Assembly (NCBI GenBank): GCA_964429015.1
Contig: CAYSAM010000004.1
Location: 1-57,350 of the forward strand
DNA from: an uncultured Pseudomonadales bacterium
GTDB lineage: Bacteria > Patescibacteriota > Microgenomatia > UBA1400 > MFAQ01
Length of the DNA: 57,350 nucleotides
Direction of reading: 5' to 3'
The position numbers and the translations under genes were made by a program. Positions 6,271 through 57,243 of the stretch are shown here, piece after piece. The notes below the pieces were generated by a model, which was not told the origin of the DNA, did no database searches, and saw only the letters and a program-made list of their open reading frames with translations. The stretch's first letter is position 1, and each line of letters begins with the position of its first letter.

Positions 6271-6276
6271 GTCTTT

Positions 6277-6315
6277 GTCATTGCGAGGCACGACTTTAGG
6301 TCGGCCGTGGCAATC
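6277..6315. repeat. Truncated (left-half) copy of the palindromic CGTCAyyGCGA...GCAATC element family
   Basis: GTCATTGCGAGG, then hairpin CACGAC-TTTAG-GTCGgccGTG, then GCAATC. Same order of modules as the left arm of the 56750-56858 element. Confidence 0.5.
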
Positions 6316-6335
6316 AATAAAAATATATTCATATA

Positions 6336-18192: not shown

Positions 18193-19692
18193 GTGAACTG
18201 GCTAAAAAAATACTACTATCTATTTCCCGTACTCCTTTATTTGCCAGCTTTAAGCAATTTTTTTTCTGGGGACGACTGGTTTCACTTGCGCCTAACTCAA
18301 ATTGACTCATTCCAACAGTTTTTTAACTTTTTTTCTTTTTCTCAAAACCAAGAAACAGCCAGTTTTTACAGACCACTCTCAACTCAAGTATTCTTTTTTC
18401 TTTTTCAAAAGCTCTTTGGTCTAACTGCCTGGCCATATTATCTTTTTGGTCTCATTCTTTTTGCTTATATTCTTTACCTCATCAAAAAACTCTCCGAAGT
18501 TTATCTATCATCTACCACCTACCATCTACGATCTACCATCTATCACCTGCCATCTATCATCTACGGACTATCTGTTTCCAACTTCACCAGGGTTTACTTT
18601 CTTTCTGCTTATCAGGAGCTTTTCCTGGTTACTTTTTCACTACTTACTCTAATAAACTACAAAGTTAAACCAAAACTCTCTTTATTATTTTTTATTTTAG
18701 CTCTTATGTCCAAGGAAACAGCCATTGTCCTCCCGGCACTAATCCTACTCCTAAACTATAAATACATAAAAAATAATTTCCAAAGTCTACGATTTACAAT
18801 CTACTCTGCTACCATCTTAAGCGTAGTTTACTTAAACTATCGCCTTCTTCATTTTGGTCTTGCTACTGGTGACAGTTATCTCTGGAACTTTTCACCCACA
18901 AAAATGGTAAACACTTTGGGTTGGTATACTGCTTGGTCTTTTGGTGCTCCAGAACTTCTAGTGGACTATGTAGGAAGTGGACTCAGATTAATTCCAAGAT
19001 TTTTTATAGATTATCCGTACTGGTGGCCAATAATAGTTTTCCCATTGCTGATACTACTTATCGGTACGCTTGTGGCGTTTCTTTTTAACCTTTATCGTCA
19101 TCGCGAAGAGACAAGGTCTCTGTGGCGATCTCCAGCACGGGGATTGCTTCAGTACTTCGTAATTCGCAATGATAGTGTTGGAAAGTTCGCTTTGTTTTTT
19201 GTTATTTCACTTCTACCTGTTTTGTTTTTACCTCAGCATAAGTTTGCCTTAGAGCTTGGTTTGCCTCTCGTTGGTTTTTCTCTCGCCCTTGCCATGTTGT
19301 TGACTGTTTCTAGTAAATTCAACTTTTTGAGTTTTTGTTTTTTTGTACTTTTTATTTTCTATAACCTTTCCATGAACTACCTGACCTACACCAGGCACTA
19401 CTCAGTAAGCAGAAGTCATATTTCCAAAAAGATTTACGAATACTTTTCTCAAAACTATCCCACGCCCCCAGAATACCAGTACTTTGAGTTTATTAATGAC
19501 GCGCAAGATAACGGGAATATTTGGGGACAGTCTAAACAAATCTCTCAAAGCTTGTCTGGGTCGGAATTCTTCAGGGTCTACTACCACCAGCATGCCTACA
19601 AGGTTTATTATCATGATACGGCTGGCGAGAGACCGTCACCTCTGGGCTTCTTGCCAATAGAAATTAGTACAAAGAAATTTTTAAACCAATGA
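18193..19692 (+). CDS. Polytopic membrane glycosyltransferase, GT-C-like (PMT/TMTC-like)
   Basis: 499 aa, GTG start. FFSGDDWFHL...FYRPLSTQVFF first-loop acidic motif and many TM helices. Carries two repeat insertions in frame. Confidence 0.6.
   Translation: MNWLKKYYYLFPVLLYLPALSNFFSGDDWFHLRLTQIDSFQQFFNFFSFSQNQETASFYRPLSTQVFFFLFQKLFGLTAWPYYLFGLILFAYILYLIKKLSEVYLSSTTYHLRSTIYHLPSIIYGLSVSNFTRVYFLSAYQELFLVTFSLLTLINYKVKPKLSLLFFILALMSKETAIVLPALILLLNYKYIKNNFQSLRFTIYSATILSVVYLNYRLLHFGLATGDSYLWNFSPTKMVNTLGWYTAWSFGAPELLVDYVGSGLRLIPRFFIDYPYWWPIIVFPLLILLIGTLVAFLFNLYRHREETRSLWRSPARGLLQYFVIRNDSVGKFALFFVISLLPVLFLPQHKFALELGLPLVGFSLALAMLLTVSSKFNFLSFCFFVLFIFYNLSMNYLTYTRHYSVSRSHISKKIYEYFSQNYPTPPEYQYFEFINDAQDNGNIWGQSKQISQSLSGSEFFRVYYHQHAYKVYYHDTAGERPSPLGFLPIEISTKKFLNQ
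18503..18574. repeat. Degenerate ATCTA-based 7/14-bp microsatellite inside the coding sequence
   Basis: ATCTACCACCTACC / ATCTACGATCTACC / ATCTATCACCTGCC / ATCTATCATCTACG (18510-18565) plus partial flanking units. Translates as SSTTYHLRSTIYHLPSIIYGLS. Confidence 0.75.
19096..19174. repeat. Palindromic REP/MITE-like element inserted in frame in the GT-C gene
   Basis: CGTCATCGCGAAG, hairpin GAGAC-AAG-GTCTC, GGCGATCTCC, AGCAC, GGGGATTGC ... TTCGCAATGATA. Same module order and terminal inverted repeats as 56750-56858. Translates as RHREETRSLWRSPARGLLQYFVIRNDS. Confidence 0.65.
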
Positions 19693-52213: not shown

Positions 52214-53368
52214 GTGGGACTCGTAAAACCAGATACAAATACTTACGCCAAAATAAAAGTTTTAGGTGTTGGTGGTGGTGGAAACAACGCCATTAATTCC
52301 ATGATTAACTCTGGGAAAATTAAAGGCGTAGAATTTATTGCTGTTAATACCGACATGCAAGCTCTACTTGCTTCAAATGCTGATATTAAATTGCAAATTG
52401 GAGAAAAAAATACAAAAGGGTTAGGGTCTGGATCCAACCCCGACGTGGGAGCACAAGCCGCCGAAGAATCTCGAGAAAAAATAAAAGAAGTTTTGCTTGG
52501 TGCTGACATGGTTTTTATAACCGCAGGAGAAGGTGGAGGTACTGGTACTGGTGCTGCTCCCGTAATCGCCGAAATTGCCAAAAAAGATATTAACGCTCTT
52601 ACTGTGGCCGTCGTAACTAAACCTTTCTTGTTTGAGGGAGCCAGACGTCGTGTTCAGGCCGAAGAGGGGGTGGAAAAACTAAAAGAAAACGTTGACACTC
52701 TAATTGTTATTCCCAACCAACGTCTTATGGATGTTGTCAAAAAAGACCAATCACTTCTCGATGCTTTTAAAACCGCAGACTCTGTTTTGGGTCAAGGGGT
52801 TCAAGGTATCTCCGACCTTATTACTGTTCCTGGTCTTATTAACGTAGACTTCGCTGACGTTAAATCGGTTATGACCAACGCTGGCTCTGCTCTTATGGGT
52901 GTTGGTAGAGCTAGTGGTGAAAAGAGAGCTATGATCGCCGCCAATATGGCGGTTAGCTCACCTCTGTTGGAGGTTAGTATCGAAGGTGCTCGCGGTATTT
53001 TATTTAACATTACTGGTGGTAAGAGTCTGACTATGAATGAGGTCAACGACGCTGCTACCATCATCACTCAATCTGCCGATCCCGACGCTAACATTATTTT
53101 TGGTGCTTCAATTAGAGATGACATGGGTGATGACGTTCAGATTTCTGTCATCGCCGCTGGTTTTGATGAAGCCAGAAGACACTTTGGCAGCAATCAACGC
53201 AGTACTAGTTTTTTTATGCCAAGTAACGATAATAAAACCGAAACTCCAAAACCAATTGAATCCAAGCCAGAACCAGTTTCCGGTAGCAGCAAGTTTAAGG
53301 TAAACCACGAAGAGGTAAATATTGAAGATGATTTGGATATTCCAACTTTTTTAAGAAATAAATATTAA
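52214..53368 (+). CDS. ftsZ: Cell division GTPase FtsZ
   Basis: [32 protein letters not shown]-terminal [10 protein letters not shown] peptide. GTG start. Confidence 0.97.
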
Positions 53369-54124: not shown

Positions 54125-54171
54125 TTACTTTACATTCGGGTAATATTCGTGTTTAATTTAGTTAGTGGCTT

Positions 54172-54196
54172 GTCATTCCGGACTAGATCCGGAATC
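54172..54196. repeat. Short hairpin element GTCATTCCGGA-CTAGA-TCCGGAATC, related to the GTCATTGCGA...GCAATC family
   Basis: Perfect 7-bp stem TTCCGGA/TCCGGAA. Starts with GTCATT and ends with GAATC, like the half element at 6277. Followed by TATATAAAT. Confidence 0.5.
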
Positions 54197-54218
54197 TATA
54201 TAAATAAACACCGAAAAT

Positions 54219-54476
54219 ATGACTCAAAACATTTCCGAATCTGTTTCTGTCCAAATGGTTTTTGATCATCGTCTTCACTTGGCCAAGCCACAACAATTAT
54301 TTTGGAATAACAAAGTTTACCCAGTTACCCAGATTGGTTTGCGCCACTGCTTCCGAGAGGGTCGTAAACTCTTTCATATTTTTTCCTTGGTCAGCCACAA
54401 TCTTTTTTTTCGTCTTCGTTTTGATACTGAAAATTTATCTTGGACAATAGAACAAATCTCTGATGGTTTGGCTTAA
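54219..54476 (+). CDS. Hypothetical small protein translationally coupled to the Y-family polymerase
   Basis: 85 aa. 14-nt overlap with the downstream polymerase gene. No motif I can name with confidence. Confidence 0.5.
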   Translation: MTQNISESVSVQMVFDHRLHLAKPQQLFWNNKVYPVTQIGLRHCFREGRKLFHIFSLVSHNLFFRLRFDTENLSWTIEQISDGLA

Positions 54477-55692
54477 AAGTAGTTTTAATAAAGCAGAATC
54501 CACTTTTGTCCATTTGGATATCAACTCTTGTTTTGCTACCTTAGAACAACAAGCCAACCCTCTTTTTCGAAACAAGCCTTTGGTGGTAACAGCCTACTCT
54601 GGTAGAAAAGGCTGTGTTTTGGCTAGCTCTAAAGAAGCGAAAAAATTAGGCATAAAAACTGGCATGAGGCTAGAGGTTGCTCAAAAAATCTATCCCAACT
54701 TAATAAGTATTGTTTCCGACCCCAATAAATATCGCTTTATTCATCTGCAAATAAAATCTCTTCTCTTGGAGTACACTCCTTCTGTTAACCCTAAGTCTAT
54801 TGACGAGTTTGTTTTAGACTTTTCTACTTTCAACTCAAAGGAAATAAGCAATCTCAAACAAACTTGTCAAACTATTAAAAACAGGATTAAGTCTGAAATA
54901 GGGGATTATGTTACTGTTTCGGTAGGATTGGGTCCCTCTGCCTTTCTTGCTAAAACCGCAAGCAATTTAAAAAAACCAGATGGCTTAGAGGAAATAAATT
55001 TTCAAAATTTCTTGGATGTTTACTCCAAACTAGAGCTAACAGATCTCACTGGTATAAATACCAAAACTGCCACCAGGCTAAATATCGTCGGTATTTATAC
55101 AGTTTTAGATCTTTACTACGCCGACATTACTCTTCTCAAAAAAGCCTTTCACTCCATTCTTGCCTCTTATTGGTATCAAAAAATTAGAGGCTACGACGCT
55201 GGTGTTTGGACAGACTCAGTAAAAAGTATAGGTCATACCTACACCTTGCCCAAAGCTAGTGCCACGGTAGGCGAAACTAAGCTCGTCTTGGCCAAGCTGG
55301 CTGAAAAGGTTTCCGTTCGCCTCAGGCACCAAGGCTTTGTGGCTCATGGCCTAAGTTTGGGGGTTAGGTTCCAAAACCAAACAAGCTGCCACAAAAGCCT
55401 CACAGTTCAAGAATCTCTCTTTGACTCTAGTACTATATATTGTTTGGCAGAAAAGGTACTAGACATCTTTCCACGTCTTCCTGTTCGTAATATTTACCTT
55501 ACTTGCTTTAATCTGACGGTATCAAGTTCTTTGCAGCTAGATTTGTGGGGGCAAACCACTAAAAAAGCTGATCTTAACCAGTGCCTAGATACGATAAAAG
55601 AAAAGTGGGGGAACTATGCCATTCACCCTGCTAGCATCCTAGGATCTCAAAACCACGCTCCAGACGCTATTGGCTTTGGAAACATCCCATAA
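54463..55692 (+). CDS. Y-family DNA polymerase (UmuC/ImuB-like N-terminal motif)
   Basis: FVHLDINSCFATLEQ (D-x-N as in UmuC rather than D-x-D of DinB), KSIDEFVLDF (SIDE catalytic motif), SVGLGPSAFLAKTASNLKKPDG. Confidence 0.88.
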   Translation: MVWLKSSFNKAESTFVHLDINSCFATLEQQANPLFRNKPLVVTAYSGRKGCVLASSKEAKKLGIKTGMRLEVAQKIYPNLISIVSDPNKYRFIHLQIKSLLLEYTPSVNPKSIDEFVLDFSTFNSKEISNLKQTCQTIKNRIKSEIGDYVTVSVGLGPSAFLAKTASNLKKPDGLEEINFQNFLDVYSKLELTDLTGINTKTATRLNIVGIYTVLDLYYADITLLKKAFHSILASYWYQKIRGYDAGVWTDSVKSIGHTYTLPKASATVGETKLVLAKLAEKVSVRLRHQGFVAHGLSLGVRFQNQTSCHKSLTVQESLFDSSTIYCLAEKVLDIFPRLPVRNIYLTCFNLTVSSSLQLDLWGQTTKKADLNQCLDTIKEKWGNYAIHPASILGSQNHAPDAIGFGNIP

Positions 55693-55818: not shown

Positions 55819-56697
55819 ATGATAGTTTTGTTGAATTGGTATCTCGGACTTCCAAATTGGGCTATGTTTTTTATAGCCTTGGTAATTATCCTGCCAATAA
55901 CGATTATTTTGGCAAAAATTTTCAAAGGTGAGGAGCCAACCCCCCGTGCTCATAACCCAGCAGAACAGTCTTTGATTGACTCAGTATTCTTCGCCATCGG
56001 TCTAAAACAGGCTGGTGACGCAGGCAAAAAATGGGGAGAAGAGCAATACAAGAATAAAAAGACCTTGAGCCCCGTTATACTTGGCCCAATTGGGTTGGTG
56101 TTGACTGTATGTTTCGTCTTATTTCAGGGGGTAGGTAAATACACCTCTCAAGATGAAAAAACAGTTACAGAAGAGCATAGCTGTACAAGAGAAACGGCTC
56201 TTGGCTTATTCTATTTGGGGATTGGAGAAAAAATTCAAACTGGTGATATCTGCTACGGCAAAACTGTCGAAGCAACACCAACGCCAACTCAGATCCCAAC
56301 CCAAATCCCAACACCGATCCAAACTTTGACCATCCCAGAGAGTGTTGCTGAGGTTCAGCAACCCACCCCGGTGGCAGAAACAGACAAGTATCCAACCCTG
56401 ACAATCAAAAACAACGGACGGGTGGATGTGGGAATTTGGACAGATGTAGAAGAAGGTGTTATCAACAAGCTCGTGCTTGTTGAAACCAAAGAGTGCGATG
56501 CTCTCGGATTTTTTCTACAGCCCCAAGACTACCCCACTTTTGTTGTTCCGCAAGATGCCCAAGCCGTGTATCTTGTAGTCGACTACAAATTTGAGGATTG
56601 GTCAGACGGCGGGACGGTATTGGTTGTAGAGGGGGATCAAATTGTTTTTAAAGCTTGCGTAGAAGGCCAAGTTTTCAAGTTATACACTTGGCCTTAA
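55819..56697 (+). CDS. Membrane protein with Pro/Thr linker and beta-rich C-terminal domain, unknown function
   Basis: 292 aa. 3 hydrophobic segments, TPTPTQIPTQIPTPIQT linker. GGAGGA Shine-Dalgarno sequence upstream. Confidence 0.65.
   Translation: MIVLLNWYLGLPNWAMFFIALVIILPITIILAKIFKGEEPTPRAHNPAEQSLIDSVFFAIGLKQAGDAGKKWGEEQYKNKKTLSPVILGPIGLVLTVCFVLFQGVGKYTSQDEKTVTEEHSCTRETALGLFYLGIGEKIQTGDICYGKTVEATPTPTQIPTQIPTPIQTLTIPESVAEVQQPTPVAETDKYPTLTIKNNGRVDVGIWTDVEEGVINKLVLVETKECDALGFFLQPQDYPTFVVPQDAQAVYLVVDYKFEDWSDGGTVLVVEGDQIVFKACVEGQVFKLYTWP
56290..56325 (+). repeat. 12-bp tandem repeat x3 encoding (QIPT)n linker
   Basis: CAGATCCCAACC / CAAATCCCAACA / CCGATCCAAACT. Confidence 0.7.
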
Positions 56698-56702
56698 AAC
56701 CC

Positions 56703-56737
56703 AGACTCGAGTGAGAAATCACCCGAGTCTTTTTTTT
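56703..56737 (+). terminator. Rho-independent terminator
   Basis: AGACTCGAGT (56703-12), loop GAGAAATC, ACCCGAGTCT (56721-30), followed by a T run to 56737. Confidence 0.8.
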
Positions 56738-56749
56738 GCCAAAAAACTA

Positions 56750-56858
56750 CGTCACTGCGAGTTTTGGTACTCCAAACCGAAGCAATCTCCGACTCGCTAG
56801 ATTTCAGCACCCCCGGAGATTGCTTTGGTTTTCGCTTCGCTCAAATCGCGCAATGACG
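56750..56858. repeat. Full-length palindromic REP/MITE-like element (about 109 bp)
   Basis: Terminal inverted repeats CGTCACTGCGAG / CGCGCAATGACG. Inner inverted repeats CCGAAGCAATCTCC / GGAGATTGCTTTGG (13/14 complementary). Sub-hairpin TTTGG-TACT-CCAAA. 24-nt centre. Confidence 0.7.
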
Positions 56859-56859
56859 A

Positions 56860-57243
56860 TTAATGCCCTGCCTCTTCTGCGGCCATAGCTTCAGCTTTGG
56901 TGGCATGAATAGTGCCTTCTGGATGATTAGCTGGGGAATATATGGTGTAAAGCTTTAATTTATCTGTTGTCGAAGTATTAATTATGTTGTGGTTAGTGCC
57001 AGCGGGGATAATAAGAACATCATCAGCAGCAAAAAAAGTTTCTTCACCATTTAAAACAGCTTTTCCTTCACCTATCTCAAACCGAAAAAACTGATCAACG
57101 TGCTCGTGCACTTCCATACCAATTTCTTCACCAGGGAGTAGCGACATAACTACTAGCTGAGAAAACTTACCAGTGTAAAGTACTTTTCTAAAATTCTCAT
57201 TTTTAATTGTTTCGTCCTCAATGTGAGCAAAATATCCTGTCAT
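56860..57243 (-). CDS. Cupin-domain protein
   Basis: 127 aa. GEEIGMEVHEHVDQFF...IIPAGTNHNIIN (cupin motifs 1 and 2). Confidence 0.85.
   Translation of the reverse strand: MTGYFAHIEDETIKNENFRKVLYTGKFSQLVVMSLLPGEEIGMEVHEHVDQFFRFEIGEGKAVLNGEETFFAADDVLIIPAGTNHNIINTSTTDKLKLYTIYSPANHPEGTIHATKAEAMAAEEAGH

Follow-up and report, generated by a model that had tools for sequence, protein, structure and literature searches.

An in-frame CGTC-tagged REP dimer as a probable tolerated passenger in a loop of a putative membrane glycosyltransferase

In Rickettsia as well as in other bacteria, selfish DNA has been described before as an in-frame passenger, and palindromic repeats of this kind add peptide segments to working proteins, Rickettsia being the classic case. 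As two later papers summarize, Rickettsia palindromic elements (RPE) are repeats located in frame in functional genes, translated, and predicted to be compatible with fold and function of the host protein (Ogata et al. 2000, via PMC10969869 and PMC3733652); elements of the RPE-1 type are about 150 bp long and restricted to Rickettsia. A further class is formed by the CGTC-tagged repetitive extragenic palindromes (REPs), which are marked by an unpaired CGTC at the terminus (TGTC and CCTC being accepted variants), by a stem whose first residues are AT and by a short unpaired tail (consensus CCA), and which mostly occur as dimers with the tags outside (HH), in some cases with a spacer of 1-5 bp; a transposase dedicated to them is not known (Di Nocera, De Gregorio, Rocco 2013, BMC Genomics 14:522, PMC3733652). 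This superfamily takes in RPE-4 and RPE-6 of Rickettsia as well as dRS3 of Neisseria (dRS3 = CGTC-1), and its members are mostly intergenic, while a minority lies in frame, where dimers code for 20-30 amino acids (aa), e.g. VIPAKAGIS...EIPAFAGMT in Swit_4867 (PMC3733652). The present analysis concerns a repeat of this type, here named element A, at positions 19096-19173 of a 57,350-nucleotide (nt) stretch of DNA (contig CAYSAM010000004.1, forward strand; in the following "the window"). Element A resides inside gene 18193-19692, which encodes a 499-aa polytopic membrane protein, and is very probably a tolerated in-frame CGTC-REP passenger in a permissive loop of a working membrane enzyme, as in RPE.

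Element A is located on the + strand and comprises two inverted REP units with the tags outside. The left unit (19096-19133) opens with the tag CGTC (19096-19099), followed by an outer stem in which ATCGC (19100-19104) pairs with GCGAT (19125-19129) and which encloses an inner hairpin composed of GAGAC (19108-19112), the loop AAG and GTCTC (19116-19120), while the unit closes with the tail CTCC (19130-19133). The spacer AGCAC (19134-19138) leads over to the inverted right unit (19139-19173), reading GGGG-ATTGC-TTCAGTACTTCGTAATTC-GCAAT-GAT, so that the letters at 19096-19174 are CGTCATCGCGAAGAGACAAGGTCTCTGTGGCGATCTCC AGCAC GGGGATTGCTTCAGTACTTCGTAATTCGCAATGAT(A). Both stems, ATCGC/GCGAT and ATTGC/GCAAT, start with complementary A-T in the first two positions, and the right end is GAT in the window and GAC in the orthologous loci L001, L128 and L129. 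All motifs quoted in an earlier note on this DNA, which had placed a palindromic element at 19096-19174 from the letters alone, are present there, and the boundaries, given as approximate, have been refined by a single nucleotide to 19096-19173. The order of modules, CGTCAyyGCGA, inner hairpin, GCrATCTCC, 5-nt spacer, GGrGATTGC, interior and TCGCAATGA, matches that of an intergenic element of the same family at 56750-56858 (element B), a likeness which the earlier note had also recognized. Indeed, the composite pattern CGTCAyyGCGA..GCrATCTCC..GGrGATTGC..CGCAATGA has exactly two matches in the window (19096 and 56750) and none in any of 300 dinucleotide shuffles, the left terminus by itself having an expectation of 0.003 per shuffle.

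As RNA, element A folds into one long imperfect hairpin of -34.7 kcal/mol (z -4.3; none of 200 shuffles is as good), which ranks within the top six 100-nt hairpin windows of the 57 kb. Folded separately, the left unit reaches -13.7 kcal/mol with outer stem and inner hairpin as annotated. A repeat scan with 6-nt seeds misses this structure, the arms of which are interrupted, while folding and motif searches recover it. A candidate compensatory change from A-T to G-C in the right unit, between window and L129, was dropped since the predicted fold lacks that pair. The 78 nt begin at a codon boundary in phase 0 and form exactly 26 codons (302-327) which are translated as RHREETRSLWRSPARGLLQYFVIRND(S) between two hydrophobic helices; the in-frame, stop-free reading and the length divisible by 3 agree with what had been noted before. 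On this strand the used frame alone is free of stops, the second frame containing TAA and the third TGA, and hence only insertions of fitting length and phase survive. No target-site duplication was detected at eight junction pairs examined (element A, element B, L128, L131 and L140 among them), element A itself being flanked by AACCTTTAT on the left and AGTGTTGG on the right. Rfam gave no match at the gathering threshold across the whole window and none with E up to 1 over 18900-19400, and searches for tRNA and tmRNA genes found none.

Judged by its architecture, element A can be assigned to the CGTC-tagged REP superfamily, with which it shares the CGTC tag, the AT stem start, the HH dimer, the 5-nt spacer and the in-frame placement. 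The same tags recur in the other repeats of the window, as CGTC and GACG at the ends of element B and as TGTC in the two single units C and D described below. As tail, CTCC or CCCC is found in the family to which elements A and B belong (in the following the ATTGC family), while units of the TGTC type end in CCA or CTA. Within the ATTGC family, the ATTGC/GCAAT outer stem encloses a conserved GAG/GAA that stays unpaired, together with an inner hairpin of hypervariable sequence, unlike the four published CGTC families as far as their descriptions allow comparison. In contrast, element C and the inserts of orthologues P0026 and P0033 do fit the published layout, in which a stem of 8-9 bp carries a loop of 4-5 nt. 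The ATTGC family moreover occurs in many more phyla than the five reported for CGTC REPs, and hosts from the candidate phyla radiation (CPR) are outside the coverage of that study (PMC3733652). Peptides typical of the family (RHCE, IARS, IASE, LRGA, RNDK and related words) are missing from its supplementary files including the intragenic list. With RPE, element A has in common that it is located in frame in a functional gene and is missing from most orthologues. Differences lie in the host, a free-living or episymbiotic CPR bacterium, and in the target, a membrane-protein loop; the likeness is one of situation, and the sole link at the level of sequence class is that RPE-4 and RPE-6 are CGTC REPs.

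Two other classes of small repeats resemble element A in part. In REPINs, two inverted REPs united in one long hairpin are taken as the replicating unit, without target duplication (Bertels and Rainey 2011, PMC3116915); they bear REPs of the GTAG type and are tied to the REP-flanked gene of a Y1 transposase, the REP-associated tyrosine transposase (RAYT). Element A likewise is an inverted pair of units forming a long hairpin without target duplication, yet it contains no GTAG, and no RAYT/Y1 transposase was seen in the window or among the genes called in L001-L007 and L128-L130, so that strictly speaking it does not count as a REPIN. MITEs, the miniature inverted-repeat transposable elements such as Correia, ERIC and QMITE, are small, non-autonomous, bounded by terminal inverted repeats and occasionally fused in frame with host open reading frames (ORFs), but they make target-site duplications and derive from insertion sequences (IS) with matching termini (PMC10969869). 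No IS was seen in the window, and since target duplication is missing at every junction examined, element A has to be called REP-like, not MITE-like; of the earlier double label "REP/MITE-like", only the first half stood, on the strength of the CGTC-tagged dimer with the tags outside. A full-text literature search for GTCATTGCGAG returned unrelated primer matches only, and one on palindromic repeats in Patescibacteria found nothing relevant.

Among the 264 homologues of the host ORF (18193-19692, + strand, from the ORF list), the few with names are Woesebacteria or Patescibacteria, and the bacterium carrying the gene is probably Woesebacteria-like, i.e. a member of the CPR (Patescibacteria). 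The window protein has no Pfam match of its own, and PF13231 (PMT_2) is found in some of the homologues. An AlphaFold2 model (predicted local distance difference test, pLDDT, 79; predicted template modelling score, pTM, 0.84) is helical throughout, with a small domain at the C-terminus, and its best fold matches in the PDB are STT3, ArnT and ALG6, all weak (E 0.06-0.4, TM-score 0.3-0.4). GT-C glycosyltransferases are expected to show a polytopic membrane fold and an acidic motif in the first external loop; in the window protein, a DDW motif occupies residues 27-29, after the first transmembrane helix, and the surrounding genes encode glycosyltransferases, methyltransferases, sugar epimerases or dehydratases and a flippase. 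Given PF13231 in homologues, the weak fold matches and the glycan gene neighbours, a GT-C-like glycosyltransferase is likely, not proven; sequence and model suggest that the product is probably a GT-C-type (PMT_2/ArnT-like) membrane glycosyltransferase of a cell-envelope glycan cluster. Element A separates a transmembrane helix upstream (19012-19095, + strand; residues 274-301 by hydropathy, helix 278-306 in the model) from one downstream (19174-19245, + strand; hydropathy, alignment and model), which reaches as far as the invariant motif HKF..E. Modelled by AlphaFold2, the insert prolongs the first of these two helices to residue 306 and contributes a further one spanning 314-324 (pLDDT 76-79), giving a predicted helix-turn-helix extension of the loop by 26 residues.

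Relative to its orthologues, the segment is an insertion. In 92 of 121 aligned orthologues the loop segment measures 30 aa and holds a short basic turn (KK[LI][ND]), versus 52 aa in the window; the insert is also present in P0001 (98% identical) and P0002 (77%) and missing in P0003 to P0008 (66-70%, BLASTP). In P0011, P0013 and P0025 the loop measures 25 aa. The orthologue alignment which the earlier note had proposed thus speaks against an ancestral peptide common to all orthologues. Near-identical copies are dispersed elsewhere. A 31-nt core of the right unit recurs unchanged at unrelated intergenic loci of other metagenomic contigs (L131-L137, L139, L140) with different left units, and the search for relatives beyond the window, likewise suggested there, retrieved them both between genes and in other genes. 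Metagenome depth over 19134-19195 rises up to 42x, versus 3-5x in the flanks, and in four runs metagenome contigs end at element A, their loose ends showing other copies in AT-rich contexts; such repeats break metagenome assemblies. At the protein level, a census with a 63-aa query joined from the inserts of window and P0022 yielded 2 candidates and no scoring match, the search being poorly suited to such peptides; the lack of a scoring match points to a subfamily that is rare in this frame among called proteins.

Combining these data, element A is a non-autonomous dimer of two inverted CGTC-tagged REP units, a copy of which very probably landed in the DNA coding for a short basic turn between two transmembrane helices. 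The 78-nt copy would have entered at a codon boundary, stop-free in the occupied frame, and with this length, position and frame it would be read through as 26 extra residues. The enzyme very probably still works and carries the insert as a tolerated passenger, in the manner of RPE and of the REPs which Di Nocera et al. list inside genes. With most orthologues having a short basic loop, the REP signature being kept and copies residing elsewhere, the idea of a mobile palindromic element tolerated in an enzyme loop, one of the options of the earlier note, is the one that is supported. The insert appears neutral rather than useful, and its persistence in the loop seems to reflect mainly a filter on retention.

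In this loop, 16 of the 121 orthologues carry REPs, of three types: ATTGC, TGTC-ATTCCsG and TGTC-ATCCCGAG. Locus L128 (P0022) holds a full dimer with a different left unit and a 25-nt spacer, its right unit being identical to that of the window in 33 of 35 nt and located at the identical codon position. L129 and L138 (P0031) have the right unit only, L004 (P0020) the left unit only, and L130 (P0021) an AT-enriched remnant of the left unit. TGTC-ATTCCsG REPs occupy the loop in P0026, P0027, P0030 and P0033, and TGTC-ATCCCGAG REPs in P0067, P0069 and P0072. On a neighbour-joining (NJ) tree the carriers are scattered over at least seven lineages, their insertion points differing by 0-3 codons, and this loop accounts for 16-17 of the approximately 27 internal insertions of at least 5 aa in the family. 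These numbers, together with the right unit which window and L128 share at one codon despite saturated flanks, would also be expected if the loop DNA were a preferred integration site for CGTC REPs, by site- or structure-specific insertion and maybe precise excision, instead of the outcome of a retention filter. Such targeting is nevertheless considered unlikely, as neither a conserved flanking sequence nor a target duplication is found at the junctions and the NJ tree is confounded by recombination. Moreover, the loop has only about 8 residues, so that surviving insertions necessarily lie within a few codons of each other, and few sites of the protein tolerate insertion at all because it is almost entirely transmembrane helix. 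As synonymous sites between window and L128 are saturated (pS, the proportion of synonymous differences, 0.76), the near-identical right unit is not a matter of plain inheritance along with the gene. It may stem from separate insertions of members of one subfamily, from gene conversion by copies elsewhere, or from selection at the nucleotide level. Rather more speculative is a widely conserved trans-acting enzyme that maintains the ATTGCGAG/GCAATCTCC family in the various phyla by recognizing its 12-nt termini and inserting or excising units precisely and with site selectivity, with the loop as a true hotspot for different REP types. If it existed, this enzyme would explain the shared right unit at one codon, the half-elements and the clean 30-aa loops.

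Exaptation of the insert, which the earlier note had named beside mere tolerance, is rated improbable. Here, the function of the insert would be that of a helical extension in the cytoplasm, or of a hairpin in the mRNA which tunes translation or membrane insertion or stabilizes the transcript. Retention across divergent lineages and the helices of the AlphaFold2 model are in line with this, as is the position of the differences between the window insert and that of L001, two synonymous and one conservative change, all outside the stems (hairpin loop, spacer and last base). Likewise, nucleotide conservation of the right unit is far above the synonymous background. It is, however, equally high at intergenic loci, which makes it a property of the repeat and not of the host gene. 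Additionally, the 92 orthologues with the short loop do without the insert, L004, L129 and L130 make do with a left half, a right half or a decayed AT-enriched remnant, and neither a terminator nor a promoter arises from element A, the sole terminator-like site being located upstream at 19066-19078.

Between the window gene and L001, both bearing the insert, the ratio of non-synonymous to synonymous changes (dN/dS) amounts to 0.19 for the whole gene and to 0.225 for the block that surrounds the insert, and the host protein keeps all residues that are invariant in the family. The insert allele is found in independent assemblies (P0001, L001, L002), and Logan contigs from metagenomes of groundwater, wastewater and bioreactors carry it too, spanning both junctions. 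Because of this dN/dS, the intact invariant residues and the occurrence of the allele in several independent metagenomes, the gene is not a pseudogene but intact and under purifying selection. The second option of the earlier note, a recently disrupted pseudogene that stays open by chance, could appeal to a repeat inserted in a coding region with one of three frames free of stops; it is highly improbable in view of these data and of the co-divergence of insert and flanks relative to L001 (dS 0.11 in the insert versus 0.22 in the surrounding block). As a separate observation, window gene and L001:10001-11473 form a recombination mosaic in which 18310-18460 and 18700-19270 are 90-100% identical and the rest 45-70%, the insert sitting in one of the high-identity blocks. 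That the loop is ancestral and its palindrome due to chance, or that the assembly is chimeric, can practically be dismissed. The loop is variable in the family, but three points speak against such readings: the absence of the composite motif from all shuffles, a family with hundreds of members, and junctions that are both spanned in independent runs and assemblies (X2 records 9 and 12, X4 record 16, L001, L002, P0001).

Several points weigh against a simple tolerated passenger, or at least against parts of this description. No movement event was seen, and no contig skipping element A occurs among the assembled metagenome contigs. Copies are few in the CPR DNA sampled, with 21 units in 198 kb versus 5.6 expected by chance in a sample partly picked for this gene; for this census stems of 5 bp were used, as a requirement for a perfect 6-bp stem misses the ATTGC family. 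The near-identity of right units across hosts with saturated synonymous sites is not explained by vertical inheritance of a neutral passenger. Regarding class, the right unit folded separately gives a weak hairpin (z -1.1), and units of the ATTGC family have a 5-bp outer stem, an internal loop, an inner stem of 5-6 bp and a 3-nt loop, whereas published CGTC families have a continuous stem of 8-9 bp with a loop of 4-5 nt. Regarding the host, the glycosyltransferase label depends on fold matches as weak as E ~0.06 and on PF13231 in homologues only, and the membrane side of the loop is probably cytoplasmic, a prediction by the positive-inside rule.

Beyond the CPR, the family was traced with the pattern CGTCAYTGCGAG-N(8-38)-GCAATCTCC in one genome per species, which gave at least 120 genome stretches and 157 units among the matches listed, to which the figures on units in this paragraph refer. 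Hosts include Gammaproteobacteria, Sphingopyxis, Neisseriaceae, Anaerolineae and other Chloroflexota, Bacteroidota, Omnitrophota, Elusimicrobia, Desulfobacterota and Oscillospiraceae (Firmicutes), cultured isolates being represented by Pedobacter, Chitinophaga, Porticoccus and Thiomicrospira. The 12-nt termini CGTCATTGCGAG and GAAGCAATCTCC are nearly invariant and common to many bacterial phyla, while the interior varies over 8-38 nt. Typically, a left unit is followed by a spacer (median 16 nt) and an inverted right unit ending in CTCGCAATGACG, and an inverted partner was found downstream in 79 of 148 units scanned. Compared with composition-matched shuffles, unit interiors fold with a mean z of -1.43 (34% of 132 distinct units below -2), and perfect inner stems of at least 4 bp occur in 57 units versus approximately 22 expected. 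A Neisseriaceae genome of the scan (L030) carries ATTGCGAG-type units, to be compared with dRS3 of Neisseria, the core of which is ATTCCC-N8-GGGAAT and which is organized in large intergenic clusters.

In genomes with a GC content below 0.55, only 7 of 80 units are located inside long open frames. Four of these seven intragenic units were checked by Pfam and are in frame in real enzymes, namely GuaA (within the GATase domain), a PurQ-like GATase_5 protein, an aminomethyltransferase of the GCV_T family and TilS, at loci L012 (Gammaproteobacteria), L037 (Anaerolineales), L118 and L027 (Bacteroidales). The family is mainly extragenic with occasional tolerated in-frame copies, like REPs elsewhere. 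The TilS protein of L027 also bears a tandem array of VIARSESSH (x3). In a Bacteroidetes assembly (L049:189-542), at least 5 units are arranged head to tail with a period of 53 nt, a layout said to be rare for CGTC REPs. The pattern CGTCAYTGCGAG...GCAATCTCC was also seen in 28 viral or proviral contigs of IMG/VR (L141-L168); phages could be vectors, or the repeats on viral contigs could be host flanks of prophages.

The locus extends a process of the Rickettsia type to the ultra-small bacteria of the CPR, in what is probably a membrane enzyme of cell-envelope glycan synthesis. Its loop represents a compact natural experiment in which full dimers, halves, remnants and three repeat types are available, so that arrival, decay and loss could be studied. 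Termini conserved across phyla, combined with the lack of a known CGTC-REP transposase, raise the question of what propagates such repeats.

Other loops of the same protein family hold different repeat-like inserts, LPVRQAG and NLAPRTSHFAPRT, after residue 198 in P0010 and P0012 and after residue 108 in P0027; a PAGRQAG-like motif is also the interior of the REP in P0030. The window protein itself contains a second lineage-specific insert at 18508-18560, an imperfect tandem repeat of CTACCATCTA-like units which encodes STTYHLRSTIYHLPS and is common to P0001 and P0005 only.

With elements C and D, which had not been part of the earlier copy count, the window contains four REP elements, three of them in its approximately 5% of non-coding DNA (the window is about 95% coding). 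Element C (54171-54198, + strand) is a single canonical TGTC-tagged REP, TGTC-ATTCCGGA-CTAGA-TCCGGAAT-CTA, in the intergenic gap that precedes an 85-aa ORF and the gene of a DinB-like polymerase (54463-55692). A closely similar unit, with a ATTCCCGA stem, the loop CCTGA and the tail GGAATCTATATAAATA as in C, is found at L140:226-253, a locus of the 841-kb contig Ga0265292_1000006, adjoining a dimer of the ATTGC type. Element D (6276-6317, + strand; TGTCATTGCGAGGCACGACTTTAGGTCGGCCGTGGCAATCAA) is a lone ATTGC-family unit that bears TGTC as its tag, located in an intergenic position just upstream of ORF 6336; it folds with -16.7 kcal/mol into an outer stem and an inner hairpin and is followed by an AT-rich stretch with TATAAT. 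The strongest 100-nt hairpins of the window, at 52861-52980 in ftsZ (52214-53368) and at 55241-55340 in the DinB-like gene, contain no REP motifs. Element B (56750-56858, + strand), an intergenic HH dimer with a left unit at 56750-56790 and a right unit at 56815-56858, is located between the convergent genes 55819-56697 (+) and 56860-57243 (-), directly past a terminator-like hairpin with a T-run, and folds with -46 kcal/mol (z -6.4). REPs also generate spurious small ORFs, and element B creates such a case at 56736-56888, a spurious 50-aa ORF (MPKNYVTASFGTPNRSNLRLARFQHPRRLLWFSLRSNRAMT...) of the REP-derived hypothetical protein type that pollutes databases.

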